From the NCBI GenBank assembly GCA_964610785.1, contig CAZSZH010000003.1, forward strand, positions 11,390-75,389: 64,000 nucleotides of DNA. Reading direction: 5' to 3'. The DNA comes from an uncultured Flavobacterium sp. (GTDB lineage: Bacteria > Bacteroidota > Bacteroidia > Flavobacteriales > Flavobacteriaceae). The notes below the pieces were generated by a model. That model saw nothing but the letters and a program-made list of their open reading frames with translations, did no database searches and was not told where the DNA came from. The stretch's first letter is position 1. The number at the start of each line of letters is the position of its first letter. The translations under genes were made by a program, and so were the position numbers. Below, piece after piece: positions 1 to 32,221 of the stretch.

Positions 1-173
1 TAATTGATATCTAAGGGTAGAATTAGCACTTCACATTCTTCGATAGTGTTGACAAAGCAATAGCTACTGTGAATAGGAGAGTTCTCTGTTGTAATCATTT
101 CATGAAAAAGCGGGAAAATTAAATTTTTATTTTCCTTGATTAAGAAACTCTTATCGGTGTAAATTTTAATCAT
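1..173 (-). CDS. 5' part of a gene running off the left edge; possibly an exostosin-like (GT47) glycan protein
   Basis: Not in the ORF track. ATG at 173-171 overlaps the TGA of the upstream GT (ATGA coupling). The frame is open to base 1: MIKIYTDKSFLIKENKNLIFPLFHEMITTENSPIHSSYCFVNTIEECEVLILPLDIN. The product guess rests only on recalled resemblance to Flavobacterium exostosin-domain N-termini. Confidence 0.55.
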   Translation of the reverse strand, partial: MIKIYTDKSFLIKENKNLIFPLFHEMITTENSPIHSSYCFVNTIEECEVLILPLDIN

Positions 174-1294: not shown

Positions 1295-1301
1295 TAGAAA
1301 A

Positions 1302-5750: not shown

Positions 5751-7291
5751 TTTGTACGTTTTCCCAAAGCCATTAATTTTCTTGCGTAAAATACAGACTT
5801 GTTAAATTGTAGTATTCTATATGGTAATTTAATTATTTTAAAAGGTAATTCCCATTTGTTTCCTTTAAAAAAATACATTGAAAAATACTTATGTTTATAT
5901 TCCACAAGCTGTTGTGCTGTAAATTGTTTATGAATTTGATACATAATAGTTGGACTAGGAATAGGTCGGATGTGCTTTACCGGCGTGTCCAATTCCCAGG
6001 GTTGGGTTTTTCGTTTTTTACCCATAATTTTAGCTTGAGATCCCCAAAATCGATAGCCTCCCATTGGTGGCTTTAGATGCAAATTTGTAGAGAATGGATT
6101 ATGAAGAACGGTAACACCAATTTTAGTTAATGAAATTCCAAAATCACTATCTTCACCATAACCTCCATCATAATTGATGTCATTACCCACTAATTGATTT
6201 ACAAATTCTCGCTTCACACATGAATTTGCGTTGCTGAAACTATTTGAGGCTCCTACTACCCATCGATTATCTTTAAAATTGTCTAATTTCAACTGTAAAT
6301 CTATTAAGGTTTGTTTTTCGTGATCGGCTCTTATATCTAATCCATTACAAGCTCCAGCATTGTAGGTTTGTAACAATCGAATATGATTTTCAATAAAATC
6401 GTTGGGAATTCTAATATCGTCATCGCCAAAAACAATATAATCTCCTGTACATAAATCAATCGCTTCATTTCTAGCGCGACAACTCCCTTTAGTCGTTTGC
6501 CATTTAAAAATAACTTCAAACGGATAATTCGATGGCTGATACAAACTCTCATCTCTGCTTCGCTCTGGCGTGGCATCGACCACAATTACTTGAGAAGGAA
6601 GATAAGATTGTTTACTTAAATCATCTAATAAATTTAAAGTAAAATCTTGACGCATCATTGTTGGAATGATGTAACTAACTGTTGGATTTCCCAGAATTTT
6701 ATTAAGTACTTTTGGAGGGATTGTAGGCAATGATTGACGCTTTTCAACATTATTTTTGGCATGTAAAAAAGCATTCCATTCACTTATTTTCCAAAATCCT
6801 TTTCTGTAAAGCATGAATAAAGAATGGTATAATTTGAAATTTTTTCTATAAAAATCATATCGATCTTTAGCAGAAATTGTAATAATATCTTTGTCAGCTA
6901 CTTCAAATAAATTTTTTACATACAATGAAATCGCACCACAATTTGAAATGGCATTAAAAGCAAAATCAAATCCACTTAAAATTAAATTATGATACTCATA
7001 ATCAAAACCTCCCAAATGTTCCCAAACTGATTTCCGAACGGCAAAATGATTTGGATTTAGTCGCCAACTAACACATTCGTCAAGATTATCAAAATCATTA
7101 ACATACCAAAAAAATATACTAGTTTGGTAAACTATATCTGAAAAAGCATTTTTATACCCTTGCTCAAATGAACTATGCCAGATATCACCCGATCCATTAG
7201 AAAGTTCCTCTAACTTTTCTAGATTAGGTGTTCCGTTATACAGAATTATCTCTCCATTTTGAGTAGTATATTCTTTTAAAATTAATGCCAT
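5747..7291 (-). CDS. Glycosyltransferase family 2 with a ~200-aa N-terminal extension
   Basis: VSYIIPT, VIVVDA, ARNEAI, FGDDD and GEDSDF in the C-terminal 310 aa. Confidence 0.88.
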   Translation of the reverse strand: MALILKEYTTQNGEIILYNGTPNLEKLEELSNGSGDIWHSSFEQGYKNAFSDIVYQTSIFFWYVNDFDNLDECVSWRLNPNHFAVRKSVWEHLGGFDYEYHNLILSGFDFAFNAISNCGAISLYVKNLFEVADKDIITISAKDRYDFYRKNFKLYHSLFMLYRKGFWKISEWNAFLHAKNNVEKRQSLPTIPPKVLNKILGNPTVSYIIPTMMRQDFTLNLLDDLSKQSYLPSQVIVVDATPERSRDESLYQPSNYPFEVIFKWQTTKGSCRARNEAIDLCTGDYIVFGDDDIRIPNDFIENHIRLLQTYNAGACNGLDIRADHEKQTLIDLQLKLDNFKDNRWVVGASNSFSNANSCVKREFVNQLVGNDINYDGGYGEDSDFGISLTKIGVTVLHNPFSTNLHLKPPMGGYRFWGSQAKIMGKKRKTQPWELDTPVKHIRPIPSPTIMYQIHKQFTAQQLVEYKHKYFSMYFFKGNKWELPFKIIKLPYRILQFNKSVFYARKLMALGKRTK

Positions 7292-8436
7292 TATTTATTT
7301 TCTAAAATAGTATTATAAAATCTAATGTTTTGTTCCATCACTACTTTGGAGTCAAATGTTGTTTCAACTCTTTTTCGTGCAGCTATGCTCATTGTTTTGC
7401 AAAGTGACTCATCGTATAAAAACTGCAAAATTCGCTTTGAAAACAATTCATGATCTTTCGGATGCGCTAAAAAACCACTGACTTCATCTTCAATAACTTC
7501 GACTGCCCAGCCCACGTTTGAAGCAACTATTGGTTTACCAAGTGCCATCGCTTCAATCCATGAAACGGGTAATGCTTCTGCAAAAGTAGGAAATACACAA
7601 ACTTTAGCTTTACTAATATGTTGTTTTATTGCATCATAAGTAACAGATCCCAAATAAGAAACATTATTCAATGCATCCTTCGAAAATAATGGTTGCATCA
7701 TTTTCCAAGTAGAATTATCTCCCGAAATGACATCTGAGCTGTCTTTACCAATCAATACTAATTTAGCTTTACTATTTTTTTCGTACACTTTGTTAAATAT
7801 CAAAGGTAATTCAAGTAATCCCTTTTTCCGTATTAAGGTTCCAAAATACAAGATAGTATTCTCATCAACCACTGCATTTGTCGGTAGAAAAAATTTAGAA
7901 CTATCAATACTGTTTGGAATGACGGTAAAGTTTCTTTTCAAATTAAAAAGTAAATTCGTCAAATCTCCTGTATATTTACTTACAGATATTATGGCGTCGG
8001 CATTGACCAACATTCTTCTTTCATGAAATTTATTAATCCATTTCACTGGACGATTATCCAAATGACAAAAGTAGGTGTCAGAACCATGTAATCGAACAAT
8101 AACTGGACATGTTGGTTTAATAAAAGAAGTCATTCCCCAATCGGGTGCTTCTACTAAATCTATTTTCTTTGATTTATGAAGTTGATTGATAATACGTTCT
8201 GTTTTTTTTTGTGATAAATACCTTGAAATTCCTTTGAATTTTACATTTTTTATTTTGTGAAAAACGATGCCATTTTCTTCAAATAGTTGATCTTCGTCTT
8301 GACCATAAACCAATACATAAACACCATGACCTGATTTTACAAGTTCATGGGATAAATTAAAAATACTAGTACCAATTCCTCCAGATACATCGAACTTATC
8401 ATTTGGATATTCGGGTGTTAAAAAAGCAATATTCAT
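7291..8436 (-). CDS. Glycosyltransferase family 4
   Basis: GGIGT N-terminal loop, YFGTLIRKKG, FPTFAEALPVSWIEAMALGKPIVAS. Confidence 0.92.
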   Translation of the reverse strand: MNIAFLTPEYPNDKFDVSGGIGTSIFNLSHELVKSGHGVYVLVYGQDEDQLFEENGIVFHKIKNVKFKGISRYLSQKKTERIINQLHKSKKIDLVEAPDWGMTSFIKPTCPVIVRLHGSDTYFCHLDNRPVKWINKFHERRMLVNADAIISVSKYTGDLTNLLFNLKRNFTVIPNSIDSSKFFLPTNAVVDENTILYFGTLIRKKGLLELPLIFNKVYEKNSKAKLVLIGKDSSDVISGDNSTWKMMQPLFSKDALNNVSYLGSVTYDAIKQHISKAKVCVFPTFAEALPVSWIEAMALGKPIVASNVGWAVEVIEDEVSGFLAHPKDHELFSKRILQFLYDESLCKTMSIAARKRVETTFDSKVVMEQNIRFYNTILENK

Positions 8437-9554
8437 TAGGTTTGTTGTTTTAAAAAAGACCTATAACACTGTAAATGTTGGGAAATCATTTTTTCAATAG
8501 TGAATTCAGTTTTAGCTATTTCATGAAGTTTTTTGGCTTTGTCCGTGTATTTTTTTTTATTAGAAATATACTCTATAAGTAATTCTTTTAATTGCAGGTG
8601 ATTGTTGGGTTTAAACAACAATTGCTTGTCTTTTAAAATCTCTGGAATGCCCCCAACATTGGTAGCAAAAACCACTTTGTTCATCAGTAAGGCTTCTACA
8701 ACAGTAAAACCAAAAGCTTCGTTCCATAATGACGGAATAATCACCACATCGGATTGGTTTAACCAATGCGATTGATTCGTAATGTTTCCGAGGAAAGTAA
8801 AAGAATTAGACGCTAAATTTTGCGATGCCAAATCAATCAAATTTGATTTGTACTTTCCATCTCCCGCAATAGTTAAATGAAACGGAATACCTTGTTCTTG
8901 TAGCAATTGACAACTTAAAATAACCGTTTGAAATCCTTTTTCTGGTATTAAATGACCAATGCAAAAAATAGCTAACGATTGATTTTCTTGAAAAACTGGT
9001 ACTACAATATAATTATTCATTTGCAGACCATTATAAATTACTTGTGTTTTTTTGGTCCAAAACGCTCCAATTTCAGATACAATAGATTGTTTAACATAAT
9101 TTGAAACGGCAATTATTTGATCAATTTGATTGAAATATATGATTCCCTTTATAGCATGTTTTATTCTTTTAGAAAAATTAGGATTATTTATAGGGCGAGA
9201 CATGTGGTCAACATAAATACATGCAACGGAATTACCTAAAACATCTTTTATACTTTTAACAATACTGGACTGATAGTCTAAAAAATGACCAATAAACAAA
9301 CTTGTTTCTTTTTTAGTTTCAAGCCATACTAAAAGTTCTTCTTGAAAGTCATCCACATTTTTAACTACTTGAAAATTCAGCCCTTTATCACTATAATGTT
9401 GGGTACTGCCATTACTTCTAAAAAGCCATGTTGGAATATATCCTTCTTGTTTTAAAGCTTGATCCATTTCCCAAAAAAAATAATCCATTCCTCCAATACG
9501 ATCAGTAGTGATTGGATAGCTACAAGCAATAGTAATTTCCTTTAAGAATGGCAT
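8436..9554 (-). CDS. Glycosyltransferase family 4
   Basis: IGHLIPEKG, IPSLWNEAFGFTVVEA, ATNVGGIPE. Confidence 0.92.
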   Translation of the reverse strand: MPFLKEITIACSYPITTDRIGGMDYFFWEMDQALKQEGYIPTWLFRSNGSTQHYSDKGLNFQVVKNVDDFQEELLVWLETKKETSLFIGHFLDYQSSIVKSIKDVLGNSVACIYVDHMSRPINNPNFSKRIKHAIKGIIYFNQIDQIIAVSNYVKQSIVSEIGAFWTKKTQVIYNGLQMNNYIVVPVFQENQSLAIFCIGHLIPEKGFQTVILSCQLLQEQGIPFHLTIAGDGKYKSNLIDLASQNLASNSFTFLGNITNQSHWLNQSDVVIIPSLWNEAFGFTVVEALLMNKVVFATNVGGIPEILKDKQLLFKPNNHLQLKELLIEYISNKKKYTDKAKKLHEIAKTEFTIEKMISQHLQCYRSFLKQQT

Positions 9555-9556
9555 TA

Positions 9557-10957
9557 TTAATTGATTGGAGTGTTATTTTTTAATATTTCTACAATACGTT
9601 TACTGGTCCCTTCTAATGGTTTTCCTATTTGGAGTTTCACCAATTCTCGTTGGCAATTTAATTTTTGATTTGGATTTTTTAAATCCAAATTAATGGCATT
9701 TACTAGTTCATTTTCATTTTTGGCAATGGTAACTGCTCCACTCTCAATAACAGTCATATAATGAGTATAGTTTAAAAATCTTTGATCATCATATAAACCA
9801 TTGATCTTATTTCCAAATGCTGTGTTGATAACTGGCTTATCAAAGAGCATGAAATCTAAACTCATAGTGGAACACATATTAACATTCAAATCAACAAATT
9901 GCAAAATCGACTTTAAATCAATAAAATCCTCTACTGTTGGTATTCTTTGTGACCAATTTTCGGAATGATTTTCTCTTGTTAATTCCCATGCAGGAAAATT
10001 CCAAGCTATTTCAGGAAATTCACTTTTTAAAGATTCAAATCTTTTTCCATCATCCGCTGGAGAAGTTCTTACCAATAATTGTGAATCGCATTCAATCAAA
10101 TTATTTCTTATTGCCAAAGCAATAATTTTAATCACCAAAGCGTCGTTCTGACCAATTGAACTGTCTGCACAACTAAAGCAAATTATTTTTTTAGTGCTAT
10201 TTAATTTAAATTTTTCCAGAAATTTATTTTTATCTACAGAATAAGTGTCCATAGCATAAGGTTCGAATTGTGGAGTTCCAACTATTACTACATTTTCTGG
10301 TTTTGTAGCTGGATAGAAATACAATAACTCTTTTTTCATTAAATCACTCCAAACCAAAAAAGTATCAAAGGTTCCTAACATTCTTCCTTTGGAAGATAAA
10401 TTATCCCAACTAAAAATAAAAGTCCCAACTGGAATTTTCAATTTTAATACACTGTACAAAAATGGAGCTAAATAAGTCGGTCTTTGATGGGTAAAAAAAA
10501 CATAATCAGGCTGATCTTCTTTTAACAATTTTAAATATGTCTTTGTCACTTTATTGTTTGCAAAAGTAAGAAATTGTAGTTTTTCTATTCCTTTTATAAA
10601 TGAGTTTGAGTTAAAAAAACGAGAACTAAAATAAATTAATCGTGTTAAAATAGACTTCGGTGTATATTTTTTTGGCATTCCCATTACTAGCAAATCATTC
10701 ATTCCGTAGAATGTTTTATTTTGCTGTAAATGAGCTGTTTCTTTATATTTTCTAAAAAACCATGTGGTGATTGTTTCTTTAAAAACTTCTAATTCACGTA
10801 TTTCAACCGAAGGATGGTTCAATTTATAAGTTCCTTTAGGAAGCCCTGAGTAAATAATAATTGTATCAAATTGATGGATTGCTTCACTTATAAAATTACT
10901 CATTATGTAATTTCTATATCCAACCCCATCAGTAATTACAATCCCTAATTTTTTCAT
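9557..10957 (-). CDS. Uncharacterised GT-B / CDP-glycerol glycerophosphotransferase-like protein; candidate nonulosonate transferase
   Basis: FSWDNLSSKG, VGTPQFEPY and STMSLDFMLFDKPVI blocks resemble TagF-like / capsule GT-B proteins. Start set at MKKLGIVITDG (10957) rather than the track's 10996. Confidence 0.6.
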   Translation of the reverse strand: MKKLGIVITDGVGYRNYIMSNFISEAIHQFDTIIIYSGLPKGTYKLNHPSVEIRELEVFKETITTWFFRKYKETAHLQQNKTFYGMNDLLVMGMPKKYTPKSILTRLIYFSSRFFNSNSFIKGIEKLQFLTFANNKVTKTYLKLLKEDQPDYVFFTHQRPTYLAPFLYSVLKLKIPVGTFIFSWDNLSSKGRMLGTFDTFLVWSDLMKKELLYFYPATKPENVVIVGTPQFEPYAMDTYSVDKNKFLEKFKLNSTKKIICFSCADSSIGQNDALVIKIIALAIRNNLIECDSQLLVRTSPADDGKRFESLKSEFPEIAWNFPAWELTRENHSENWSQRIPTVEDFIDLKSILQFVDLNVNMCSTMSLDFMLFDKPVINTAFGNKINGLYDDQRFLNYTHYMTVIESGAVTIAKNENELVNAINLDLKNPNQKLNCQRELVKLQIGKPLEGTSKRIVEILKNNTPIN

Positions 10958-11121
10958 TTCAATACCTATCAAAACTATTATTCTTTCAACCTTCAAATAT
11001 CATTGTTTTTTTTGGAATTTAAAAACATTAAGTAGTATAATCAGAAAACTCCGACTTAAATCACAGTATGTTTTGTTGTAGAAGTTAATTGTAAAATTTT
11101 GAAAAATTAAGTATTTCACTT

Positions 11122-12246
11122 CTAAAATTTATCTTTAAACTGCTTTTGGTGATTGATAGTCCAAACTGTTGGACTTTTTAACACATTTAAAAACAATTCG
11201 GTACTGTTTCCTTTTCCAAAATCGTTCCAAGAGGGATGTACCTCATGGTCATCAATTATCTTTAATGCATTTGAAATGCTGTTCATTTGGTAATCAATAT
11301 TAACAATGTCGGCATTTATTGCTCTATTTTGTTGGCGTGTACCAATATTAATAATTGGAATACCATAATAAGGTGCTTCACGAATACCAGCACTGCTGTT
11401 GCCAATGATGAATTGAGAATTTTTAAGAAAGGCTAAAAAATATTCAAATCGAAGGGAGGGAAATACTCTAAAACGTACATTATCTTTTAGTTTTTGGTAA
11501 TTTTTGATGATGTACTGACTTCCTAAATCATTGTTAGGAAAAATTACTATATAGTTATGATGATCCTCCAATAAAGCATTCACAAAATCCGCTGCATAAC
11601 GTTCCATTTGATTAAATTCAGTAGTTACTGGATGAAACATAACCACAGCATATTTAGAAAATGGAATTTGGTAGTATTCTTTAGCCTTTTCCAGACTTGG
11701 TAATTCATTTGAAAACATGATGTCAATATCTGGCGAACCGATGGTGAATATTGAAGATGGTATTTCTCCCATTTGTATTAATCGTTTCGCTGCATCATCA
11801 TTTGAAACAAAATGAATATGACTGAGTTTACTCACACTGTGACGTATCAATTCATCTACAGTTCCCGAAAGTTCACCACCTTCAATATGCGCTACTAAGA
11901 AATTATTTAAGGATCCTACAATGGCTCCTGCGAGGGTTTCGACGCGATCACCATGAACCACAATTAAATCGGGTTGTACTTTTTTACAATAACTAGATAA
12001 TCCTTCTATGGTTTTGGCCAAAGTCAAATCCATGGTAGTTTCGTGGGTGTGATTTTCAAAAGTATGCACATTTTTAAAGTGACATCTTTCAATTTCAATT
12101 AATGTATATCCATATTCTTCTTGTAGGTGCATTCCCGTGACAAATACAAACACTTCAAAATCTTGATTGGTATCAAGAACTGTTACAAGCGATTTTATTT
12201 TACCAAAATCGGCTCTGGTCCCAGTAAGAAAAAGAATCTTTTTCAT
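11122..12246 (-). CDS. neuC: UDP-N-acetylglucosamine 2-epimerase (hydrolysing)
   Basis: TGTRADFG, VHGDR, HIEGGELSGTVD, IRHSVSKLSHIHF, MFHPVTTE and GNSSAGIREA motifs; closely resembles meningococcal SiaA as recalled. Confidence 0.95.
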   Translation of the reverse strand: MKKILFLTGTRADFGKIKSLVTVLDTNQDFEVFVFVTGMHLQEEYGYTLIEIERCHFKNVHTFENHTHETTMDLTLAKTIEGLSSYCKKVQPDLIVVHGDRVETLAGAIVGSLNNFLVAHIEGGELSGTVDELIRHSVSKLSHIHFVSNDDAAKRLIQMGEIPSSIFTIGSPDIDIMFSNELPSLEKAKEYYQIPFSKYAVVMFHPVTTEFNQMERYAADFVNALLEDHHNYIVIFPNNDLGSQYIIKNYQKLKDNVRFRVFPSLRFEYFLAFLKNSQFIIGNSSAGIREAPYYGIPIINIGTRQQNRAINADIVNIDYQMNSISNALKIIDDHEVHPSWNDFGKGNSTELFLNVLKSPTVWTINHQKQFKDKF

Positions 12247-12253
12247 AATTTAA

Positions 12254-13363
12254 TTAACTTATGCGACTTGGATAGCGTCGATCTCGAATATTTAAAAAGT
12301 ACTTTTCAATATAAGTAGTCATAGCTATTCCAATCACTATGCTTGATAAAGAGGATGCAATAAAAATAAAATTTTGGTGCAGTGATTCATGAAAAATCAA
12401 GCTATTAGCCAATCTATAAAAATAGTTTACAAAAGTATGGATGATATAGATTGAATAAGATGAAAAACCAATTTTACTAATAGTATTTACCATTGTATTT
12501 GAAAAGCACTTGTTGAGAGTCTTGTTAATATTTTTGTCAATTAAAAAATAAACCAATACAATTCCAAAACCAATATATAAAAAGGTAAACCCAAAAGTCC
12601 TAATATAAAAAGAATCCATAGGATCAATAATGGGACTAAATGAGACTAATAATAGCGCTAATAGTAATAATATTTTCTTGTAGGAATTGAAAAAATGAGT
12701 TAAAAATTCAGTTCTAAAATAGTATAAATAAGAAACAAATACTCCAGCCAGCAAGGAATCTACTCTAAGATGCGTCATAGTAAAATTTCTTACATTATCA
12801 TTAGGAAAATAGATATTAGAAACTAATCTAAGCCCAAAACAAAGGATCATAATTGCAACAATCAATAGTCCTAATCCGCTAATTTTATGAGACTCTTTTT
12901 TAACATATATCCATTTTTTTTTCAATGCCCAATAAAGTAATAACGCAAAACCAAAATAAAAGTGCTCTTCTACTGCTAACGACCAACTTGCAGCATAAGC
13001 GTAGCCCCAACCTAAAACATAATTTTGCACAAAAAAAACATCCGATAAAAGACCTACCCATTCTAACTTATGTTTTATTAAAATCGGAATTAAATATAAG
13101 AGATAAAAAATAAAATAGATTGGATATATTTTAAAACCTCTTCGAATTAAAAATAATTTAGGCTTTATATTACCATACTTTAAATATTCTTTAAATAGTA
13201 ATCCAGAAACCAAAAATCCACTTAAAACAAAAAATAAATCTACACCAATCCATCCCATATTTTTGGTAAATTGAAATAGATATTGATGTCGCAATAGCAC
13301 TAGAACAATTGCAATTCCTCTCAAAAAATCGAGTTCTCGGAGTCTATTTTTACTTGTACTCAT
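12254..13363 (-). CDS. Acyltransferase-3 (OafA-like) membrane O-acyltransferase
   Basis: LDFLRGIA, GVDLFFVLSGFL, RRGFKIYP, WSLAVEEHFY and SYSIY motifs; multiple TM segments. Confidence 0.9.
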   Translation of the reverse strand: MSTSKNRLRELDFLRGIAIVLVLLRHQYLFQFTKNMGWIGVDLFFVLSGFLVSGLLFKEYLKYGNIKPKLFLIRRGFKIYPIYFIFYLLYLIPILIKHKLEWVGLLSDVFFVQNYVLGWGYAYAASWSLAVEEHFYFGFALLLYWALKKKWIYVKKESHKISGLGLLIVAIMILCFGLRLVSNIYFPNDNVRNFTMTHLRVDSLLAGVFVSYLYYFRTEFLTHFFNSYKKILLLLALLLVSFSPIIDPMDSFYIRTFGFTFLYIGFGIVLVYFLIDKNINKTLNKCFSNTMVNTISKIGFSSYSIYIIHTFVNYFYRLANSLIFHESLHQNFIFIASSLSSIVIGIAMTTYIEKYFLNIRDRRYPSRIS

Positions 13364-14243
13364 TTAACAAATTATTATTGATACCAATGGTCAATTCCCC
13401 TTTATTAAAAAAACTAAAACCATAATTATCAAGAACTTTATATATGTCATTTCTACAATTAAACTCGTCATGAATTTCTAATGCAATGCATTTTGTTATT
13501 TCTAAAAAATCAACATTTGCATTTTCCGAAGTAAATATTTGTTTTTCAGAACCTTCCACATCAATCTTCAGTATATCAATAAGTTCATACTTATACTCTC
13601 TAACTAATTGATTTATAGAATAAGCTTGAACTCCATCTAATTCATTTGTTTCTTCAACTCTAAATGACCAATCTTGTCTATCTCTAAAATCTCTAACAAT
13701 TTTAATTTTTTTATTTGAACTCCAAATTGCAGCATTAATTTTAACTATTTTATGAGTTTCATTGTTTTTTATGTTAAAATCTAAAATTTTAAAATTTTCT
13801 AATTCTGGTTCTAAACATATAATATTTGGTTTATTAAAATGATCTAAAAAAAACAAAGAAGTTAAACCAATATTACTTCCTGCATCAATAATATTAATAC
13901 TATAATCTGAATTCTCATGAAAATGTTGTTTGAATTGTTTGACCACCTCTGAATACTCTTCCCACCCGTAAACTTGTTGAAAAACATCAATATCGCTAGA
14001 TGGTTTTTTTCTTAGCTTTATTATTTTAGTACTATTATTTTTAAATTCTGTTACATAATAATCTGATGTTTCCGATTTGAAATATCCATTTGAATGAATT
14101 AATATATTATAGTAAACATATACTTGAATTTCTTTTTCAGAGGGCTTGATTTTTAAAATAGTTTTAATTAGGTAAATTAAAACAATACCTGCATTTATAA
14201 AATTTAATCTTTTAAGGTTTTTAAATTTATTGGTTTTAGGCAT
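13350..14243 (-). CDS. FkbM-family methyltransferase
   Basis: IIDAGSNIG, LEPELENF and ILKIDVEGSE motifs. Confidence 0.9.
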   Translation of the reverse strand: MPKTNKFKNLKRLNFINAGIVLIYLIKTILKIKPSEKEIQVYVYYNILIHSNGYFKSETSDYYVTEFKNNSTKIIKLRKKPSSDIDVFQQVYGWEEYSEVVKQFKQHFHENSDYSINIIDAGSNIGLTSLFFLDHFNKPNIICLEPELENFKILDFNIKNNETHKIVKINAAIWSSNKKIKIVRDFRDRQDWSFRVEETNELDGVQAYSINQLVREYKYELIDILKIDVEGSEKQIFTSENANVDFLEITKCIALEIHDEFNCRNDIYKVLDNYGFSFFNKGELTIGINNNLLNEYK

Positions 14244-15021
14244 TATTCTTTAATTTTTTGAGAATTTCAAATTTAGTTTTTAAAATGATACTATCATTTA
14301 AAATAGTTTTATAATAATTTTTTGTGTTGGTAATTATTATTTTTTTTACAAATGAAGCTATAATTTTGATTTTAGAGGGAAACTTTTTACCATGCAATTG
14401 GTATTCGGATATTGTTTCGTTTTTAAATCTATTCACCATAGATTTTCGATTTCTCTCAATAAAATAAAAAAAAGTTTCATTAAAATCTAAAATTGTATAT
14501 CCTTCGTTAACAACTCGCTCAGACCATTCTTTATCTTCACTAAAAACTAGTTTTTGATCAAATTTATGTTTCTCCCATACCTCTTTATTAACTAATGCAC
14601 ATCCAGTCATTAATCCAAAATGAAGAGGTTGTTTTACAATAAAATCATTCTCTAAAGCACGATTATAATTTTCAATACTATTGATGTATCTTATTCCAGC
14701 AATTGAATTGGAATTATTTATAGCTTGAAATGAATTTTTGAAAAAACTATTTCCAATAGGAACGGCATGAGAACTTAATAACAAAACATATTTTGATTTT
14801 GCATGCATTATCCCCAAATTAGTTGCTTTTCCGTATGTAAAATTATCAATTGTTACAATTACACAATTAAACTTTTTTGCAATTTCAATGCTGTTATCTT
14901 TCGAATTATTATCTACAACAATAATTTCATGTACATCATCAAAATAAACTTTTTTTAAAATAAATAGTGTCTTTTCTAGAGCCTTAGCTTCATTTTTATT
15001 TCTTATAACAACTGATATCAT
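14236..15021 (-). CDS. Glycosyltransferase family 2
   Basis: ISVVIRNKNE, VVDNNSKD, YGKATNLG and SEDKEW motifs. Confidence 0.88.
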   Translation of the reverse strand: MISVVIRNKNEAKALEKTLFILKKVYFDDVHEIIVVDNNSKDNSIEIAKKFNCVIVTIDNFTYGKATNLGIMHAKSKYVLLLSSHAVPIGNSFFKNSFQAINNSNSIAGIRYINSIENYNRALENDFIVKQPLHFGLMTGCALVNKEVWEKHKFDQKLVFSEDKEWSERVVNEGYTILDFNETFFYFIERNRKSMVNRFKNETISEYQLHGKKFPSKIKIIASFVKKIIITNTKNYYKTILNDSIILKTKFEILKKLKNNA

Positions 15022-15038
15022 AATTTAAAAATTAAAAT

Positions 15039-16079
15039 TTATTCGAAATCTTTAAAATCTAATTGCTCATCATTATTTATATCTCTAGTAGCTTTTTTAC
15101 CTAGTAAACTATCAAAATGCTCTGCCAAAATCTTTCCCGTTCCTGGGCGCTTTACCCAAATGTTATCATTGGTTAACGTTTCGCCTTTTTTAATAGCCGA
15201 AATGCAACATACGGTTGCAAAAGCAAAGTCTATCGTAACTTGTTCTTCTTGAGCAGGGACTTTAGTTCCGCCTCGCATTTGCCAAATCTCATTAGAAGAA
15301 ACAATGAGTTCGTTACAAGCTTTTTCATCCATGCTGCATACAATATCTGGACCCTTGCGTTGCATATGATCGGTAAAATGACGTTCTAGAATACTAGCCC
15401 CCAGCGCAACAGCTCCAAGACAAGCATTGTTATTCAAAGTATGGTCTGAAAGTCCGAATACCTTATCCGGGAAAGCTTGATGCAATTGGGTCATGGCACC
15501 AAATCGAACCAAATGAATGGGCGTTGGATATAAATTTGTAGTATGCAATAACGCTAGAGGAATGTTATGCTTATTAAAAATTGCTACAGCTTTGCTAACA
15601 CTTTCAATAGTATTCATACCCGTGCTCAATATAACAGGCTTACCAAAAGAACAAATGTGTTCTAACAAGGGATAGTTATTACATTCACCAGAACCAATCT
15701 TATAGGCAGGAATATCAAATTTATTCAACCGCTCTGCAGCCGCACGAGAGAATGGTGTAGAAATAAATATCATGCCCTTGCTTTCAACATAATTCTTTAA
15801 CTCAAACTCCTCATTTTCATTAAGAGAACACCGCTCCATGATTTCATAAATAGAAATATTAGCATTACCAGGAATGACTTTCTTGGCAGCACCACTCATT
15901 TCATCTTCAACAATATGCGTTTGATGCTTTACTACCTCAACTCCAGATCTATGAGCCGCATCGACCATTTCTTTAGCTACTTTAAGTGAGCCATCGTGAT
16001 TAATTCCTATTTCGGCAATCACTAGTGGCTGAAAATCGGGACCTATCTTTCTTCCTGCTATTTCTATGTAAGGTCTCAT
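15039..16079 (-). CDS. neuB: N-acetylneuraminate synthase with a C-terminal SAF domain
   Basis: [51 protein letters not shown] and WVKRPG motifs. Confidence 0.96.
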
Positions 16080-16082
16080 ATT

Positions 16083-17201
16083 CTATTGCTTTTCGTTAAT
16101 AAAAAGGCTAAATCTTGATTTATATCTCAATATTGGTTTCTCAAAAAAAGCATACGATAAATGAGAAACGATAACAGTTAAAATAATGGAGCTTGAATAA
16201 ATTAATATATTATTTAATTGTTCAAACTTATTAAAATATTTAAGTAGAATATTAATAAAAAAAACAATTATTATTTGATGATACATGTAAATTCCGTATG
16301 AAATTTTTCCTAAATAATTTAAGAGTTGATTTTCAAAGATATTTTCTAATTTTTTATTTCCAACTAAGTTCAAAATTATAATAATAAATAAGATTGCATA
16401 AAATAATCTGAAAAATTCATACAAATTTGGCATATATATGTATAATAAAACTATTGCTATTATTGAAGCTATAAAAACAAATGAGTTATAAAAAAAATGT
16501 AGTCTTTTATCTTTTTCATAGAATAATACCGCTCCAAAAGCACCAACAGACAGTAAATCAAATTTAAGTAATCTATAATAATTTTTTAATAATTCGATGT
16601 AAGGAAGGTTGTTCAAAAAACTTAAGTGAAGACATCCATAAAATATCCAATATATTATTATACAACTTAAAAAAATAGTTTTATACTTATTAAATTGATT
16701 TACAATTATGGGCCAGATAATATAAAACTGTTCTTCAGTACCTATAGACCATGCCTGAGCGGCAAAAGGAATTGGAATAATTAAATACAAAAGATTCGGC
16801 AACATCAAAATAAACATAACAATTACCTTAATAAGCTCTTTAGAGTCATAATCAAAATACGCGCCATTTATATAAAAAAGAGAAAAATTAGGAAGAATAA
16901 ATAAAGACAATATTATAATAAAATAGTATAGCGGCCAAATTTTTAAAATCCTCCTTAAATAGAACTTTTTAAAACTAATAAAAGAATATATCTCTTTTTC
17001 TTTTAAAAGTAAAATCGTTATTAAAAACCCACTTAACACAAAAAATAAATCTACACCAACATCCCCCAAATACCTTAATTGCTCACGATAATTGGTTAAT
17101 AAAAAATATTTTTTATTTAATTCAATATGACAAATAACAACCATCAATGCGGCAAAAAAACGCAATCCATTTAAGTTGTTGAAATATAATTTTTCTTTCA
17201 T
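16083..17201 (-). CDS. Acyltransferase-3 membrane O-acyltransferase
   Basis: LNGLRFFAA, GVDLFFVLSGFLIT, RRILKIWPLYY, WSIGTEEQFY and LGKISYGIY motifs. Confidence 0.9.
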   Translation of the reverse strand: MKEKLYFNNLNGLRFFAALMVVICHIELNKKYFLLTNYREQLRYLGDVGVDLFFVLSGFLITILLLKEKEIYSFISFKKFYLRRILKIWPLYYFIIILSLFILPNFSLFYINGAYFDYDSKELIKVIVMFILMLPNLLYLIIPIPFAAQAWSIGTEEQFYIIWPIIVNQFNKYKTIFLSCIIIYWIFYGCLHLSFLNNLPYIELLKNYYRLLKFDLLSVGAFGAVLFYEKDKRLHFFYNSFVFIASIIAIVLLYIYMPNLYEFFRLFYAILFIIIILNLVGNKKLENIFENQLLNYLGKISYGIYMYHQIIIVFFINILLKYFNKFEQLNNILIYSSSIILTVIVSHLSYAFFEKPILRYKSRFSLFINEKQ

Positions 17202-17203
17202 AT

Positions 17204-17860
17204 TTATTGTCTTATTGCATATTCAGCATAATCTAAATCTTGTTGATTATCAATGTCAACATTTGCATACATATGATTTACTTCAAAAGGAATTGCGTTT
17301 TCTGAAATTATTATTTCTTTTAAAATTAATTTAGCTTTAGTAATATAAAGTAATCCATTTTCAAAATAAAGAGGATCTAAATCTTGGCTTCTTTGACCAA
17401 TAATGTAGTTAAACGGAATAAATTTATTATTTACTATTTTACCAAACTTTTGATAATTTCTAGTAACCGTAAACAAACTATCTGAATTATTTTCTTCATA
17501 TACTTCGAAAGCCTCTGTCAAAATATTTTTTGGGCGTAATGGATTAGTAGCTTGCAATAAAATAACATTTTCAACCTCATCATCAATAGTTTGTAAAACA
17601 TGCTTTAAAACAGTAACTGTAGGCTCAAAATCTCCTGACAAATTTTGAGGTCTGTCTATTACTTTAACTCCATACTGTAACGCGCAACTTTTAATATGTT
17701 CATCATCTGTTGAAACATAAATTTCATTAATTATTGAAGAATTATCTTGCGCAAACAATATACTGTGAGCCATTAAAGGAATTCCTCCTAGAGGAAGAAT
17801 ATTTTTATTTTGAAGTCTTTTTGAACCACCGCGCACTGGAATAATTGCTATTGTTTTCAT
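17204..17860 (-). CDS. neuA: Acylneuraminate cytidylyltransferase (CMP-Neu5Ac synthetase, single domain)
   Basis: IIPVRGGSKRLQNKN, VSTDD, RP, LQATNPLR, RSQDL, ENG and DID motifs. Confidence 0.92.
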   Translation of the reverse strand: MKTIAIIPVRGGSKRLQNKNILPLGGIPLMAHSILFAQDNSSIINEIYVSTDDEHIKSCALQYGVKVIDRPQNLSGDFEPTVTVLKHVLQTIDDEVENVILLQATNPLRPKNILTEAFEVYEENNSDSLFTVTRNYQKFGKIVNNKFIPFNYIIGQRSQDLDPLYFENGLLYITKAKLILKEIIISENAIPFEVNHMYANVDIDNQQDLDYAEYAIRQ

Positions 17861-17863
17861 AAA

Positions 17864-18502
17864 TTAAAGTTTTTTTGCTAAAATTCCGTAACTCAATCCT
17901 TTGGCTTGAATATCCCTACTTTCAATATATATCTCAATAAATCTTTTAATTCTTTCTTTTAAAGTTTGAGGTTTTGATGGCTCATCAATTATAGCATATT
18001 CTAATAATTCAAAACCGCTTTCTTTTAAAAAATATTCCACGATATGAAACCAAGGTGCAAAAACATGATGTTCTTCTAAATGTTTTGGTTGAAAGGAAAA
18101 AAGTGTTCCTTTAAAAAACATATTTAATCTACTTCTACTCCAAGAGGGATTAGGCACTGAAAGTATTAAATAGCCTCCTTTTTCAATATGGTTACTTATA
18201 TTATTGATTCCAATTAACGGATTGGCTAAGTGTTCTAAAACCTCTAAAAAAAGAACAATTCCTGCTTTTTGAACATCATCTGGTTCAGAATTATTAAGAT
18301 CCCAAATAATCGATTTATCAATCTTTTTAAAATAATCAAAGGGTTGCCAAGTTGCACCAAGTCCTTCAATTTTTGCTTGCATATGACCAAATCCTGCGCC
18401 TACATCGCTTACAATTTTATTAGGAGCGAGAGAAAATAATTCGTCTAATTTCTGATTTGCAAATTGAACCCTATGATTGTAAATCGTATTTTTTTTTATC
18501 AT
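17864..18502 (-). CDS. SAM-dependent methyltransferase-domain protein
   Basis: DVGAGFG motif I, LEVLEHL and GGYLILSVPN. Confidence 0.8.
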   Translation of the reverse strand: MIKKNTIYNHRVQFANQKLDELFSLAPNKIVSDVGAGFGHMQAKIEGLGATWQPFDYFKKIDKSIIWDLNNSEPDDVQKAGIVLFLEVLEHLANPLIGINNISNHIEKGGYLILSVPNPSWSRSRLNMFFKGTLFSFQPKHLEEHHVFAPWFHIVEYFLKESGFELLEYAIIDEPSKPQTLKERIKRFIEIYIESRDIQAKGLSYGILAKKL

Positions 18503-18519
18503 TTAAGATTAAAATGTAT

Positions 18520-19434
18520 TTATTGTTTTGGTTTCCAAAAAATCTTTGAAGCGGGCAATGTTTCAAATTTTCTAAACTCATTATAGGAGAACCTATTACT
18601 ATTTTTGACCAATTTAGGCAAATTAATTAACACGTCAAAAATTGCTTGAATAATTGCAATAGTAGCTTTAATATCCCCTTTAAAAGTTTTGGCTTTTAGT
18701 TGAATCCACATAGTGTAAGCTATCTTTTTGGGTATCAAAGACCATGGAAAAAAAAGCAAATACAAATACCATCCAGACCGTAAACTTCTTCGCAATCGCA
18801 ATTGATAATCGTTATTATTTTTCCTTAAAAGCACGTCAACTCTATGGTGAACTAAAATTGAAGGCTCATATATTATTTGTTTATTTATTTTAAATAATTG
18901 ATAGGATGCAAATTCTTCTTCTCCATAAAAAATAAACCATTCTGGATAATTTGGAATTTCTCTCCAAGCTTGCATTCGCCATACATGTCCACACCCAACA
19001 AACCCATTTACTTGTTCTGATTTTTCATTTGTACCAAGAGTTTTTGGCAACTCCATACCCCAAAAAATCCGAAAAGCAATTAATCCACAATTAGGATGTT
19101 CAATAAATTTTTGCTCGATAATTTCTAACGGGTTTTTAGCAACAAAATGAGCATCATCATCTAATGAAATGGCATAGGTTGCTTTTGTCTCACTGAGCAT
19201 TTTATTTCTACAAAATAAATATCCCTTAGATGCTTCATTTCTAATAAGTTTAACTTTTGGAAATTGTTGCTTTACAGATTCAAATGTTTGATCAGTTGAG
19301 CCATCATCGAAGACCATACATTCTACATCATTCCTTTTTATAATAGAATCAATCTTAGCTAAAGTAAAAAGGAGATCTTCACTCCTGTTTTTTGTCGAAA
19401 TTAATATAGAAAACAATGGATAATCTTTATTCAT
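18520..19434 (-). CDS. Glycosyltransferase family 2
   Basis: SILISTKNR, FDDGSTD, RNKML, SLDDDA and YGEE motifs. Confidence 0.9.
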   Translation of the reverse strand: MNKDYPLFSILISTKNRSEDLLFTLAKIDSIIKRNDVECMVFDDGSTDQTFESVKQQFPKVKLIRNEASKGYLFCRNKMLSETKATYAISLDDDAHFVAKNPLEIIEQKFIEHPNCGLIAFRIFWGMELPKTLGTNEKSEQVNGFVGCGHVWRMQAWREIPNYPEWFIFYGEEEFASYQLFKINKQIIYEPSILVHHRVDVLLRKNNNDYQLRLRRSLRSGWYLYLLFFPWSLIPKKIAYTMWIQLKAKTFKGDIKATIAIIQAIFDVLINLPKLVKNSNRFSYNEFRKFETLPASKIFWKPKQ

Positions 19435-19435
19435 A

Positions 19436-20452
19436 CTAAAAATTATTTATCATTTCATTAGACAGTTTTTTCCATTTTAAAAAAACTTTATGAATTACTT
19501 TATGAAATAATATCTTATGGAATAATTTATTTTTTACAAAGTAACTTGGTTTTGAGATTTTTTTTTGTTTGTGAAATCCACTACTTAAAGATTCCAAATT
19601 AGCTTTCATAAGTCTACTCACTTCAACCTCCATCCAATCTTCGATAGTGTTTCCCATATGGTAAGCATAATTATCCTCGGTAGTAACCCTCCAATAATCT
19701 TTTTCTAAAGGCAATAAATCAAGATATCCTTCGCTTGTTCCTCCGAGTTTAAAACCAATATAAGAAACTAGATTTTCAAAAATATCTTTTTTATAAGTGG
19801 CTACAAAATGACCCGAACCAAGAAATACTTTACCTGAATTAGGTAACTCCAAGCCAAGGCTGTATTTTAAATAATTTTGATTATAGTCTCTCTTCCATCC
19901 AATACTATCATAAAATTTGATGAGGGCAGCTTGGTTTTTAATGGAATAGAATTGGAGTCTTTTATTAAAAAAATTACTCCAAATAGCATTGGAGCTGTTG
20001 GATTTATAAAGTGTAAATTGAGGAACTATTCCTACTACTCCAACTTTGGGTAGTTGGCTAAATATAGTATTCGTTTCAGATTGCCAGTTGGATAGAAAAA
20101 GCACATCTGCATCTGAAATGGTAACTAATTCAATGTTATTGCCTGCAAGTCCTTTTAATATTGCATTAAGTTTTCCGATATTTTCAGTATGAATAAGCTC
20201 GTGAATTTTATTAGCAGCAAAAAAGTCATCTAAATATTCTTTTACTTCTACGCAACTTCCATTATTAACAATGGTTATAAAAGTTTTATCATGAACCGTT
20301 TTAAAAAGGGACTGCAAACAAAGTTGAAATATTTTAAAACTATCTTTAAAATACCCATTTTGGTTGGGAATGTAAACCGGAATAATTATTTGATGTAAAT
20401 ACTCTGATTTATCGTGAGGTATATCTTTATGTGGATTGTATCCTACTCGCAT
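19436..20452 (-). CDS. Glycosyltransferase family 2 / GT-A fold
   Basis: IIIPVY, IVNNGS, NIGK and SDADV motifs. Confidence 0.8.
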   Translation of the reverse strand: MRVGYNPHKDIPHDKSEYLHQIIIPVYIPNQNGYFKDSFKIFQLCLQSLFKTVHDKTFITIVNNGSCVEVKEYLDDFFAANKIHELIHTENIGKLNAILKGLAGNNIELVTISDADVLFLSNWQSETNTIFSQLPKVGVVGIVPQFTLYKSNSSNAIWSNFFNKRLQFYSIKNQAALIKFYDSIGWKRDYNQNYLKYSLGLELPNSGKVFLGSGHFVATYKKDIFENLVSYIGFKLGGTSEGYLDLLPLEKDYWRVTTEDNYAYHMGNTIEDWMEVEVSRLMKANLESLSSGFHKQKKISKPSYFVKNKLFHKILFHKVIHKVFLKWKKLSNEMINNF

Positions 20453-20461
20453 TATTGCAGA

Positions 20462-21310
20462 TTAATTATTTTGAATACTTGCAATGGCGTCTCTTCCTTT
20501 AATAAAAATATAATCAGCACTTCCGTCATAATCTTCAACCAAAATCAAGCTGGCTTTATCATCAATTTTATAAATATGTTCAAAATTTTTTTCTTTTAGA
20601 GAAGTTATGATTTCTTTACAAATTTCTATACCATTAATTTCTGTAACTAATTCAATTATTAAAATACAATTATCAAATTTTTTAAAAATTTCATCAGCTC
20701 CTTGTATTACTTCTCTTTCAAACCCTTCAACATCAATCTTTACAATAAAATTTTCACCTATTATATTATCTCTAAAAGCATTTAATTTAGTTACGGGAAT
20801 AATAATTCTCTCATTAAAGTTTTGATCAAAATTTACTTTTATTGAATGTTTACCCTTGTTCCATCCTTTGTTTACGTTTAGTACATTGTTGCCAATAACA
20901 TCACCTAAACCCATTCTAAAAGGTCTAATATTCTCAATATTGTTTAATCCAATATTTTTAATAAAACTCAAAAAATTAGTAGGTTCTGGTTCAAAAGAAA
21001 AAACTTCTATTTTATTATTTATGGTTGCAGCAGTTAAAGAGTGAATTCCAATATTAGCACCGATATCAATTAAATTATAATTTTTAGTTGCATATTTTTT
21101 TATCAAATCTAAGATAATTTGTTCTGAATAACCTCCAAATATTATACTGGATTCTATTGCTGAATTATTACTCAAATAAATTTTAAATCCATTAAAATTC
21201 ATAATAATTTTTTTATCTCCTATTATAATCTTTATTACCTTTTTAAATCTATTTTTTTTTAAATAAAAATTATAAATTTTAAGAAGAATTTTTATTATTA
21301 GTTGTCTCAT
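20462..21310 (-). CDS. FkbM-family methyltransferase
   Basis: IDIGANIG, FEPEP and VKIDVEGFE motifs. Confidence 0.9.
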   Translation of the reverse strand: MRQLIIKILLKIYNFYLKKNRFKKVIKIIIGDKKIIMNFNGFKIYLSNNSAIESSIIFGGYSEQIILDLIKKYATKNYNLIDIGANIGIHSLTAATINNKIEVFSFEPEPTNFLSFIKNIGLNNIENIRPFRMGLGDVIGNNVLNVNKGWNKGKHSIKVNFDQNFNERIIIPVTKLNAFRDNIIGENFIVKIDVEGFEREVIQGADEIFKKFDNCILIIELVTEINGIEICKEIITSLKEKNFEHIYKIDDKASLILVEDYDGSADYIFIKGRDAIASIQNN

Positions 21311-21318
21311 TTTTTTGT

Positions 21319-22584
21319 TTAACTAAAAATCATATCAAAATCCATTAGAATTTTGCTTTGTTTTTCTGGCACAATCTTTCCATTATTAAAAAAATCACCA
21401 GATTCAACGATTATCTGAAATGCATTTTCAATAAAATCTGATACCTCATCATCAACAGTCAAAAATATAGTTGCAAAATAGATTCCATTATTAAAATTAT
21501 TTCTTGGATAATGAATCAAAATAGATTCAGGAACTAGTTCATTGTTAATTTTAACTAAACTAGAGCTCACCCAAGAATAACGTTGTCCAAAATCATCCTC
21601 AATTCGAACATCAAATCTAATTCTATTACATGAAATACTATGATTATTTTGTAACTTAAACAAAATATTTAACTTTTGCCCGGAAACTACATTTTGTAAT
21701 TCATCATTACCAAAAATAGTTACCTTCTCAAATTTAACAATTCCATTACCTTTTCGACCTCTAGAATTTATAAGTTCATTTGAAAATGAATTTCCTTGCA
21801 AATACTTAGAAATAGATTCATTAATAGCTCCATCAAATACTAACTGACCATTCTCAAGAATTATTCCTTTATCACACAAATTCTTAACTGCTGCCATATT
21901 ATGGCTAACAAATAATACGGTTCGTCCATCACCTTTGCTAATATCTCCCATTTTACCGAGGCATTTCTTTTGGAAATCAGCATCGCCTACTGCAAGTACT
22001 TCGTCTACAATTAGGATTTCACTCTCTAAATGAGCCGCAACGGCAAAAGCCAAACGAACGTACATAACGGAAGAGTATCGTTTTACAGGTGTGTCTATGT
22101 ACCGCTCGACTCCCGAAAAATCGATGATTTCGTCTAACTTTCTAGTGATTTCCTTTTTTCGCATTCCGAGAATAGCTCCATTCAAATAAATGTTTTCTCG
22201 TCCTGATAACTCCGGATGGAAACCTGTACCCACCTCAAGTAAACTTGCAATTCTTCCTTTTACTTTAATTTCACCAGTTGTTGGACTAGTTACGCGAGAA
22301 AGCAATTTTAACAAGGTACTTTTTCCTGCTCCATTCTTACCAATAATTCCAACAGCATCTCCCTGATTGATTTCGAAATTTATATCTTTCAAAGACCAAA
22401 CAATGTCACTTTTCCCTTTAGTGCTTCTATCATTACTTTCGCCAATTTTAAGAAATGGATCTTCTTTTCCTAAAATTTTAGTTACCCAAAATCGCTCTAA
22501 ATCGCGCGAAATAGTTCCAGTACCAATTTGTCCAATTTGGTAAGCTTTTGATAAGTTTCCGACTTGTATTACTGGTTTACTCAT
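21319..22584 (-). CDS. wzt: Polysaccharide ABC transporter ATP-binding protein with a C-terminal Wzt_C-type domain; atypical signature YSSVM
   Basis: Walker A GKNGAGKST, Walker B ILIVDE, H-loop VSHN, GFHPELSGRENI and a ~170-aa C-terminal extension. The signature reads YSSVM instead of YSSGM. Confidence 0.93.
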   Translation of the reverse strand: MSKPVIQVGNLSKAYQIGQIGTGTISRDLERFWVTKILGKEDPFLKIGESNDRSTKGKSDIVWSLKDINFEINQGDAVGIIGKNGAGKSTLLKLLSRVTSPTTGEIKVKGRIASLLEVGTGFHPELSGRENIYLNGAILGMRKKEITRKLDEIIDFSGVERYIDTPVKRYSSVMYVRLAFAVAAHLESEILIVDEVLAVGDADFQKKCLGKMGDISKGDGRTVLFVSHNMAAVKNLCDKGIILENGQLVFDGAINESISKYLQGNSFSNELINSRGRKGNGIVKFEKVTIFGNDELQNVVSGQKLNILFKLQNNHSISCNRIRFDVRIEDDFGQRYSWVSSSLVKINNELVPESILIHYPRNNFNNGIYFATIFLTVDDEVSDFIENAFQIIVESGDFFNNGKIVPEKQSKILMDFDMIFS

Positions 22585-23459
22585 TATATAGTATCAACAA
22601 AATTCTTTTCGGTTTTATTGAAAATTAGGATCCCCAAAAACAAAATAATTAGTGTGATTATTGATGAATAACCTATACTCCAAAGACTAAATTCTCCTTT
22701 CCCTAAAAAGGAATATCTAAACGCTTCAATTATTCCAGTCATCGGATTATATTCTATTAATTTTGACATTTCTCCAAATTTTTTTCTGGCTTCACTTAAT
22801 GGATAAATAACCGTTGTTGAATACATTAACAACTGAACACCAAAGGTTACTAAAAAAGTTAAATCTTTATATTTAGTTGTCATTGCTGTAATGACTAATC
22901 CAATTCCTAAGCCTAATAAAGCCATTAAAATAACTAGAAATGGAACAATTAAAACACCATACGTAATAGTAAAAGTTGCACTGCCTTGTGGAAAAATATA
23001 AAAATAAATCATCATCAACACAAACAATAACATCTGAACTCCAAATCGTACCAAGTTACTCACGACGATACTCAATGGCATAATTAATCTTGGAAAATAT
23101 ACTTTACCAAAAATACTGGCATTGTCTTTAAAAACAGTACTGGTTTTAGTTAAACAATCTGAAAAATAATTCCAAGAAGTAATTCCCGCTAAATAGAATA
23201 ATTGTTGTGGCAAACCATCTGTACTCATTCCAGCAAGATTACCAAAAATAAATGTAAAAACTAATGTTGTAAATATGGGTTGAATAAAAAACCAAAGTGG
23301 ACCAAGAATAGTTTGTTTATAGAAACTAACAAAATCTCTCTTCACAAACATTACCAATAAGTCTCTGTAAGCCCAAAGATCTTTGAATTTTAAATCAAAA
23401 AGGGAGGTATGTCCTTTTATTACTAAATCCCAATCTGATAATTCATGTGTAGATTTCAT
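22584..23459 (-). CDS. wzm: Polysaccharide ABC transporter permease
   Basis: YKQTILGPLW, KVYFPR and NPMTGIIEAFR motifs; about 6 TM segments; 1-bp overlap with wzt. Confidence 0.93.
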   Translation of the reverse strand: MKSTHELSDWDLVIKGHTSLFDLKFKDLWAYRDLLVMFVKRDFVSFYKQTILGPLWFFIQPIFTTLVFTFIFGNLAGMSTDGLPQQLFYLAGITSWNYFSDCLTKTSTVFKDNASIFGKVYFPRLIMPLSIVVSNLVRFGVQMLLFVLMMIYFYIFPQGSATFTITYGVLIVPFLVILMALLGLGIGLVITAMTTKYKDLTFLVTFGVQLLMYSTTVIYPLSEARKKFGEMSKLIEYNPMTGIIEAFRYSFLGKGEFSLWSIGYSSIITLIILFLGILIFNKTEKNFVDTI

Positions 23460-30130: not shown

Positions 30131-30137
30131 GTTTTAA

Positions 30138-30899: not shown

Positions 30900-30945
30900 A
30901 TTTTAAAGAATATTATAGTGTGGTTTATTATGTACATTTTGACTG

Positions 30946-30953: not shown

Positions 30954-31003
30954 CAATTTTGTTTTTTGTTTTTATACGTTTGTTCGGAAAATTGATAAAA
31001 TAT

Positions 31004-32219: not shown

Positions 32220-32221
32220 TG

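Follow-up and report, generated by a model that had tools for sequence, protein, structure and literature searches.

A valine codon at the signature glycine of Wzt in an uncultured Flavobacterium: a probably real and recent change that may disable glycan export

Introduction

A single codon in the wzt gene of an uncultured Flavobacterium raises the question of whether one base has silenced the exporter of a surface glycan, or whether that base is an error in the assembled sequence. Wzt is the ATPase of a polysaccharide ABC exporter. In the ABC dimer, ATP bound by one nucleotide-binding domain (NBD) is covered by the signature motif of its partner, whose serine side chain and glycine main-chain N bond the gamma-phosphate. 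In the 64,000-nucleotide stretch of DNA analysed here (the window), the fourth residue of this motif is Val in place of Gly. An earlier note, made from the letters of the window, had proposed that this point mutation may disable the exporter of an entire glycan cluster while all synthesis genes stay intact. Here, we compare the codon with its homologues and with assemblies of the same population, and weigh the readings that it allows.

Results

Codon 173 of wzt encodes valine

Codon 173 of wzt (window 22068-22066, minus strand) is GTT, which encodes Val, and the minus strand around it reads CGA TAC TCT TCC GTT ATG TAC. The reading of YSSVM for YSSGM in the earlier note is thus correct. The gene, its motifs and its permease partner are arranged as follows.

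21319..22584, minus strand: wzt, 421-aa polysaccharide ABC exporter ATPase with an NBD and a C-terminal Wzt_C-like domain
22318..22341, minus strand: Walker A, GKNGAGKS, residues 82-89, intact, fitting GxxGxGK[ST]
22063..22077, minus strand: ABC signature (C-loop), YSSVM, residues 170-174, encoded by TAC TCT TCC GTT ATG
22066..22068, minus strand: codon 173, whose middle base, window 22067, is the variant base
22000..22017, minus strand: Walker B with the catalytic Glu, ILIVDE, residues 190-195, intact
21898..21906, minus strand: H-loop, SHN, residues 227-229, intact
21400..21756, minus strand: Wzt_C-like putative carbohydrate-binding domain (PF14524, below the Pfam gathering score), residues 277-395
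22584..23459, minus strand: wzm, ABC-2 permease partner (PF01061, 4.5e-17)

The NBD of Wzt matches ABC_tran (PF00005) at 6.2e-20, and a D-loop (AVGD, residues 198-201) follows Walker B. The C-terminal match to PF14524 (Wzt_C), the domain with which Wzt-type exporters read a modification at the chain end, is weak, with a score of 28.1 bits vs a gathering cutoff of 30.4. One base is shared between the stop codon of wzm and the start of wzt.

The closest system of known structure is Wzm-Wzt of Aquifex aeolicus (6oih, 6m96, 7k2t, 8dku), which resembles the window Wzt across the NBD (residues 60-359, E about 5e-62). The two agree in Walker A, Walker B, the D-loop, the H-loop and the position of the signature, and both have an ABC-2 partner and a C-terminal extension. 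Since YSSGM of A. aeolicus Wzt aligns exactly over YSSVM, residue 173 is the fourth position of the ABC signature (LSGGQ), as had been claimed. The claim that Walker A, Walker B and the H-loop are intact also holds, as all three were located in Wzt and aligned with the solved protein. The systems differ in the signature itself (YSSGM there, YSSVM here), in the strength of the Wzt_C match, which is weak here, and in the predicted substrate, which in the window system is a different, nonulosonic-acid-containing glycan. The NBD similarity to A. aeolicus Wzt and the adjacent ABC-2 permease identify the protein as a Wzt-type export ATPase. Walker A, Walker B, the D-loop and the H-loop of an ABC NBD are all present, and the Gly at signature position 4 is missing. 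The window Wzt is a member of the ABC family by descent, but catalytically it is probably not one.

Wzm-Wzt is the only exporter within an intact glycan cluster

The exporter genes lie in an ABC-transporter-dependent glycan cluster, upstream of which is a separate Wzx/Wzy-type locus.

170..23459, minus strand: ABC-transporter-dependent glycan cluster, all ORFs intact
11122-12246, in the glycan cluster: NeuC-like 2-epimerase
15039-16079, in the glycan cluster: NeuB
17204-17860, in the glycan cluster: CMP-sugar cytidylyltransferase
20462..21310, minus strand: FkbM-type methyltransferase, directly downstream of wzt
26862-27635, plus strand: CpsB-like phosphatase, divergently oriented
27713-30130: Wzc
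30138-30899: Wza
31004-41829: separate Wzx/Wzy-type locus, upstream of the ABC cluster
31617-32261: initiating sugar transferase
40411-41829: flippase of the Wzx/Wzy locus

The glycan cluster also encodes nine glycosyltransferases, two FkbM-type and two other methyltransferases, two AT3 acyltransferases and a FemAB-like protein. Every ORF in 170-21310 is intact, in agreement with the earlier statement that the synthesis genes are undamaged. The description of the locus as a sialylated-glycan cluster is supported by NeuB, the CMP-sugar cytidylyltransferase, the NeuC-like epimerase and the position of Wzm-Wzt as the only exporter inside the cluster. Judged by gene content, a nonulosonic-acid glycan exported by Wzm-Wzt would be a fair description of the predicted product.

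The FkbM methyltransferase beside wzt is a possible candidate for a chain-terminating enzyme. Similarly, Wzt of E. coli O9a and Klebsiella is an exporter ATPase with a C-terminal domain that adjoins a methyltransferase. Terminal methylation in those systems is of the WbdD type, whereas the window encodes an FkbM-type methyltransferase and not WbdD. The second polysaccharide region (27713-41829) also contains a PglD-like acetyltransferase. Because the Wzx/Wzy locus with Wza and Wzc adjoins the cluster, the cell keeps a route to surface polysaccharide.

Glycine is invariant at signature position 4

Gly occupies position 4 in 409 of 409 homologous signature motifs inspected (42-94% identity). The best 120 homologues (58-94% identity) all carry YSSGM, and the 13 full-length members of the 90% cluster to which this Wzt belongs all have Gly. 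A search with residues 153-200 alone, which is biased towards V-containing words, likewise gave Gly in 120/120 among the matches listed. The more distant relatives were sampled as 150 representatives of 50%-identity clusters (42-77% identity), taken from 18,342 at E <= 1e-30. Their motifs vary at signature positions 1 and 3 (YSSGM 141, YSTGM 7, FSSGM 5, YSAGM 2, FSTGM 1), and position 4 is Gly in 156/156.

The Val form was also sought as the DNA pattern of YSSVMxxRLAF. In 185,579 species genomes, the pattern identified no Wzt and all six of its matches were chance occurrences, while the Gly version gave at least 120 matches in the same genomes. A scan of 241 million JGI metagenome records with the Val pattern yielded 11 matches, two of which derive from Wzt. 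Both are gene remnants from unrelated lineages. In Ga0182030_10636201, YSSVM lies in a 135-aa fragment that begins past the Walker A region and follows an unrelated gene, and in Ga0299915_10349148 it occurs among scattered wzt pieces. Across these homologues, species genomes and JGI records, Val was seen at signature position 4 in no intact relative. These homologue sets and pattern searches rule out that YSSVM is the normal variant of some Wzt lineage; far from being common among functional homologues, the motif is absent from all 409 inspected.

The substitution appears to be isolated and recent

The closest relatives are Flavobacterium metagenome genomes, identical at 93-94% of amino acids and 86% of DNA positions. 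At codon 173 they read GGC or GGT, which bears out the earlier remark that GTT is one base from GGT and makes the difference a one-base G>T. Against these relatives, wzt has a pairwise dN/dS of 0.047, compared with 0.09 for wzm and 0.18 for the methyltransferase. An alignment of 129 full-length homologues contains 133 near-invariant positions (at least 98% conserved), and the window departs at two of them, namely G173V, which 0/129 share, and E203D, a conservative change that 2/129 share. From these comparisons, G173V appears to be a single isolated radical change in a gene under strong constraint until very recently. Since the remainder of wzt shows strong purifying selection, the change is regarded as very recent.

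Other origins for the codon were considered and rejected. A decaying or long-standing pseudogene is contradicted by the full-length ORF, by the low dN/dS of wzt and by the one radical departure among the near-invariant positions. A quasi-palindrome-templated mutation through a 7-nt inverted repeat fails, as the change does not improve pairing. A diversity-generating retroelement or phase variation seems unlikely, given the lack of a repeat tract and changes that are not adenine-specific.

The segment shared with the closest relatives is limited to window 20121-23435 (86% nucleotide identity), which covers wzm, wzt, the FkbM methyltransferase and the beginning of the next glycosyltransferase; the other ~20 kb of glycan genes differ. 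This pattern indicates that modular exchange has probably taken place around a conserved export and terminator cassette. At 0.34, the dS of the methyltransferase is half the value for wzt and wzm (0.73-0.89), a possible sign of a nearby recombination boundary.

Assemblies of the same population differ at codon 173

Near-identical contigs (99.97-100% to the window) were found by exact look-up of neighbouring proteins. They come from the ENA metagenome assemblies ERZ4223250, ERZ4201038 and ERZ4224321, from NCBI assembly GCA_037138175.1 and from the Logan runs SRR12676969 and SRR12676970. The ENA contigs have SPAdes-style names and k-mer coverages of 3.4-5.0. Exact look-ups of the window Wzt and of the epimerase at window 35891-37093 returned no record. 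The recurrence of the sequence in several low-coverage metagenome assemblies points to an environmental population, and the lab-adapted origin that the earlier note had offered as an example is unlikely.

One contig, NODE_7615 of ERZ4223250, spans wzt, with two differences from the window in 8,629 nt, and reads GTT at codon 173 as the window does. At codon 171 it has TCT>TTT (S171F, window 22073), so that its motif becomes YFSVM and lacks the invariant serine of the signature, which lies 6 nt from the Val codon. This is either a second change in the same motif or a low-coverage error. The same contig carries AAA>TAA at window 20335, a stop in the GT2 gene that directly follows the FkbM methyltransferase gene, which could be a synthesis-blocking suppressor or an assembly error.

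In ERZ4201038, the sequence breaks at the very codon. NODE_5737 of this assembly and contig 45 of GCA_037138175.1 agree with the window at 6,392/6,392 nt before terminating at wzt nt 518 in a G, not a T (window 22067; ...TCT TCC GG). NODE_2184 of ERZ4201038 begins at wzt nt 520 (ATG TAC...). Ends at nt 518 and 520 fit a de Bruijn one-base bubble at nt 519 on a G518 background, as we infer, and suggest that the ancestral Gly allele is also present in the population. A random difference, at ~2e-4 per nt, would fall on this pre-specified base and restore Gly with a chance of roughly 5e-5, so Gly-type reads almost certainly exist in the ERZ4201038 sample. The evidence for the Gly allele is one terminal base together with the geometry of the contig break. 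Since the strain's own full-length Wzt with Gly at residue 173 is absent from a collection of 15 billion proteins, no full-length Gly allele of this strain is public; a pattern search of genome contigs with the strain's own DNA around codon 173 gave no match. Comparison of Wzt between sister strains, a check proposed in the earlier note, therefore gives a mixed answer: ERZ4223250 shares the Val, whereas ERZ4201038 breaks at the codon with a Gly-type GG. At best, the change is confined to a fraction of the population.

A sequencing or assembly artefact is unlikely to explain the codon

The strongest competing explanation is that the codon is GGT in all cells and that the T reached the consensus through read damage or miscalling where coverage is low or errors are frequent; S171F in ERZ4223250 and the contig break in ERZ4201038 would then share this local cause. 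We consider it possible but unlikely. The reliability of the assemblies bears on it directly, and their differences from the window (490-28459 and 52789-64000 compared) are as follows.

ERZ4223250: 6 differences in 29.0 kb (S171F; K40* in the GT2 gene, 20335; A37S; V30V; G400S; E500G)
ERZ4201038: 6 differences in 35.9 kb (H235Y, F137C, G289C, N5H, G39V, N50K), and the end at codon 173
GCA_037138175.1: 1 private difference (R174S), and F137C, G289C, G39V and N50K in common with ERZ4201038
ERZ4224321: 0 differences in 11.8 kb
Logan runs: 0 differences in 4.6 kb

The rate is ~2 differences per 10 kb, and it is equal in the glycan cluster and in a housekeeping stretch (2 differences in 8.5 kb). 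Twelve of the 13 differences change a protein, one of them by a stop codon, and one is synonymous; transversions outnumber transitions by 8 to 5 and include four G>T. G>T is a classic class of oxidative damage. Read errors or DNA damage at low coverage would give such a spectrum, and so would very young mutations not yet filtered. The spectrum resembles errors or damage more closely than selected polymorphism, and suggests either damaged or erroneous reads at 3-5x coverage or a transversion-prone lineage. An artefact is favoured by this rate and spectrum, by the low k-mer coverage, and by 3 conflicting sites in 20 kb between ERZ4201038 and GCA_037138175.1. The latter looks like a second assembly of the ERZ4201038 data; the length of its contig 7, 24,803 nt, equals 25,472 - 872 + 203. 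The position of the anomalies is also suggestive, as a stretch of 8 nt holds all three (nt 512, nt 518 and the 518/520 break) and lies beside the arm of the 7-nt inverted repeat at 22060-22066. Three anomalies in 8 nt fit equally a coverage split between two real alleles and a spot that is troublesome to sequence.

Against an artefact, the T occurs in two assemblies of very different contiguity (an 84-kb vs a 10-kb contig), and random errors do not recur at one base. To our knowledge, no systematic Illumina error turns CGGT into CGTT. Furthermore, the window sides with the majority at 10 of the 10 other variable sites that could be checked in a third assembly, so its 84-kb contig can be taken as the best consensus. 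At four sites it is ERZ4201038 that stands apart, and this same assembly bears the ancestral base at codon 173. Every supporting contig apart from that of the window belongs to a 3-5x metagenome assembly. The assembly of the window and ERZ4223250 may share reads and hence be non-independent, and a systematic error at this spot could also have produced the T. Weighing this evidence, we consider the Val allele probably real.

Two further irregularities were noted in these contigs. The tip of an ERZ4223250 contig (window 6044-6187) has 22 mismatches in ~145 nt, and either is an error-laden end or reflects recombination within the GT2 gene (5747-7291); such a tip indicates that contig ends are unreliable. 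In JBAXIX010000007.1 of GCA_037138175.1, 203 nt of unrelated DnaJ_C-coding sequence is fused inside the FkbM methyltransferase gene at window 21193, where the ENA assembly of apparently the same data runs on into wzt. This join is likely a chimeric contig end.

Valine would probably impair ATP hydrolysis

The earlier note held that the signature Gly contacts the ATP gamma-phosphate, and this is borne out by CFTR, in which the main-chain N of G551 forms such a bond and G551D abolishes ATP-dependent gating (PMC2606936). Its further claim, that bulky substitutions cripple hydrolysis, stands in part. In homodimeric ABCB10, G602V (LSGGQ>LSGVQ) and G602D lower hydrolysis and keep nucleotide binding (PMC4459825), and CFTR G551D points the same way, but CFTR G551A and G551C keep ATP dependence (PMC2606936). 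By analogy, it is likely, though not certain, that Wzt with V173 is crippled. No assay of any Wzt signature mutant was found in the literature.

ABCB10 G602V is the nearest parallel, with the same Gly to Val change at the same residue of a homodimeric ABC transporter; unlike the Wzt allele, it is an engineered mutant (as is G602D) and belongs to a mitochondrial type IV exporter, not to an ABC-2 (type V) system. CFTR G551D, and likewise G1349D, affects the same signature glycine. Unlike in the present case, the two sites of CFTR are different and only one is affected, and G551A and G551C show that size and charge matter.

In Wzt, both ATP sites would carry Val, since the window and the relatives' loci compared have one wzt per wzm. 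A tblastn search identified one Wzt-like NBD in the 64-kb window, and thus no second NBD with a consensus signature, as a heterodimer with one degenerate site would have, is encoded there. The mutant analogues and the absolute conservation of the Gly together suggest that a severe defect in ATPase activity and export in the Wzt homodimer is the most likely outcome.

Alternatively, the change may be real but tolerated, with V173 Wzt keeping enough ATPase activity or being compensated, and export merely slower or chain length altered. The preserved ATP dependence of CFTR G551A and G551C and the hydrolysis of ABCB10 G602V, which is reduced and not demonstrably zero, are in line with tolerance, as are the intact synthesis genes, which are expected of a pathway in use. 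The same intact genes are, however, equally expected if the mutation is very recent. Val is larger than Ala or Cys and beta-branched, both sites of the homodimer are hit, and the other natural YSSVM copies occur only in gene remnants. All 409 motifs keep Gly although neighbouring motif positions vary. Tolerance of the Val therefore appears improbable.

Discussion

Our preferred explanation is a real, derived, recent and unfixed G173V that entails loss of export, which we hold, as a whole, with a confidence slightly above even. A G>T change in wzt would have turned GGT into GTT and the signature Gly into Val. In the Wzt homodimer, the signature motif is expected to close over the ATP on the partner's Walker A, with the main-chain NH of the Gly bonding the gamma-phosphate, and the mutation would place a beta-branched Val at both ATP sites. 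Binding of ATP would remain possible, but a marked fall would be expected in productive closure of the NBDs and in hydrolysis. The nonulosonic-acid glycan that the genes in 170-21310 produce would consequently be exported by Wzm-Wzt in small amounts or not at all. The mutation would be very recent and unfixed, and a near-identical sister strain or sub-population would retain the Gly codon. Cells with the Val allele would retain the second polysaccharide system (Wzx/Wzy, Wza/Wzc). That the codon is no read artefact, and that ATPase activity and export are lost, is what we infer from the comparisons above. G173V is an ordinary, textbook kind of loss-of-function mutation. Loss of Wzt can be survived, because a delta-wzt mutant of K. 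pneumoniae grows without O-antigen and resists O-antigen-dependent phages (PMC11795761).

A more far-reaching interpretation is that the Wzt signature is repeatedly hit in a wild, near-clonal population, in which export-dead alleles are selected, for example by phages or grazers that recognise the glycan. It builds on three states of the motif: G173V in the window, the pair G173V and S171F in a second sample, and Gly in a third. On this reading, silencing of the exporter by a point mutation, in place of deletion of the cluster, would keep the loss reversible. We regard it as improbable. Selection for loss of this cluster in particular is rejected, because differences are as frequent in the housekeeping stretch as in the cluster, which is no special target. 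Phage escape, which the earlier note had offered as an example, is likewise speculative.

If the codon proves to be an artefact, it would caution that single 'inactivating' substitutions in low-coverage metagenome genomes need read-level support before a biological reading, since the assemblies of this population differ at ~2 sites per 10 kb, mostly in ways that alter a protein. If G173V is real, it would represent a natural, single-base and probably reversible shut-off of an entire ABC-dependent surface-glycan pathway in an uncultured, freshwater-type Flavobacterium, with the Val allele coexisting with a functional one. The allele could then serve as a catalytic-dead control for Wzt biochemistry, and the locus would offer a small, clean case for the loss and regain of surface glycans in wild populations.
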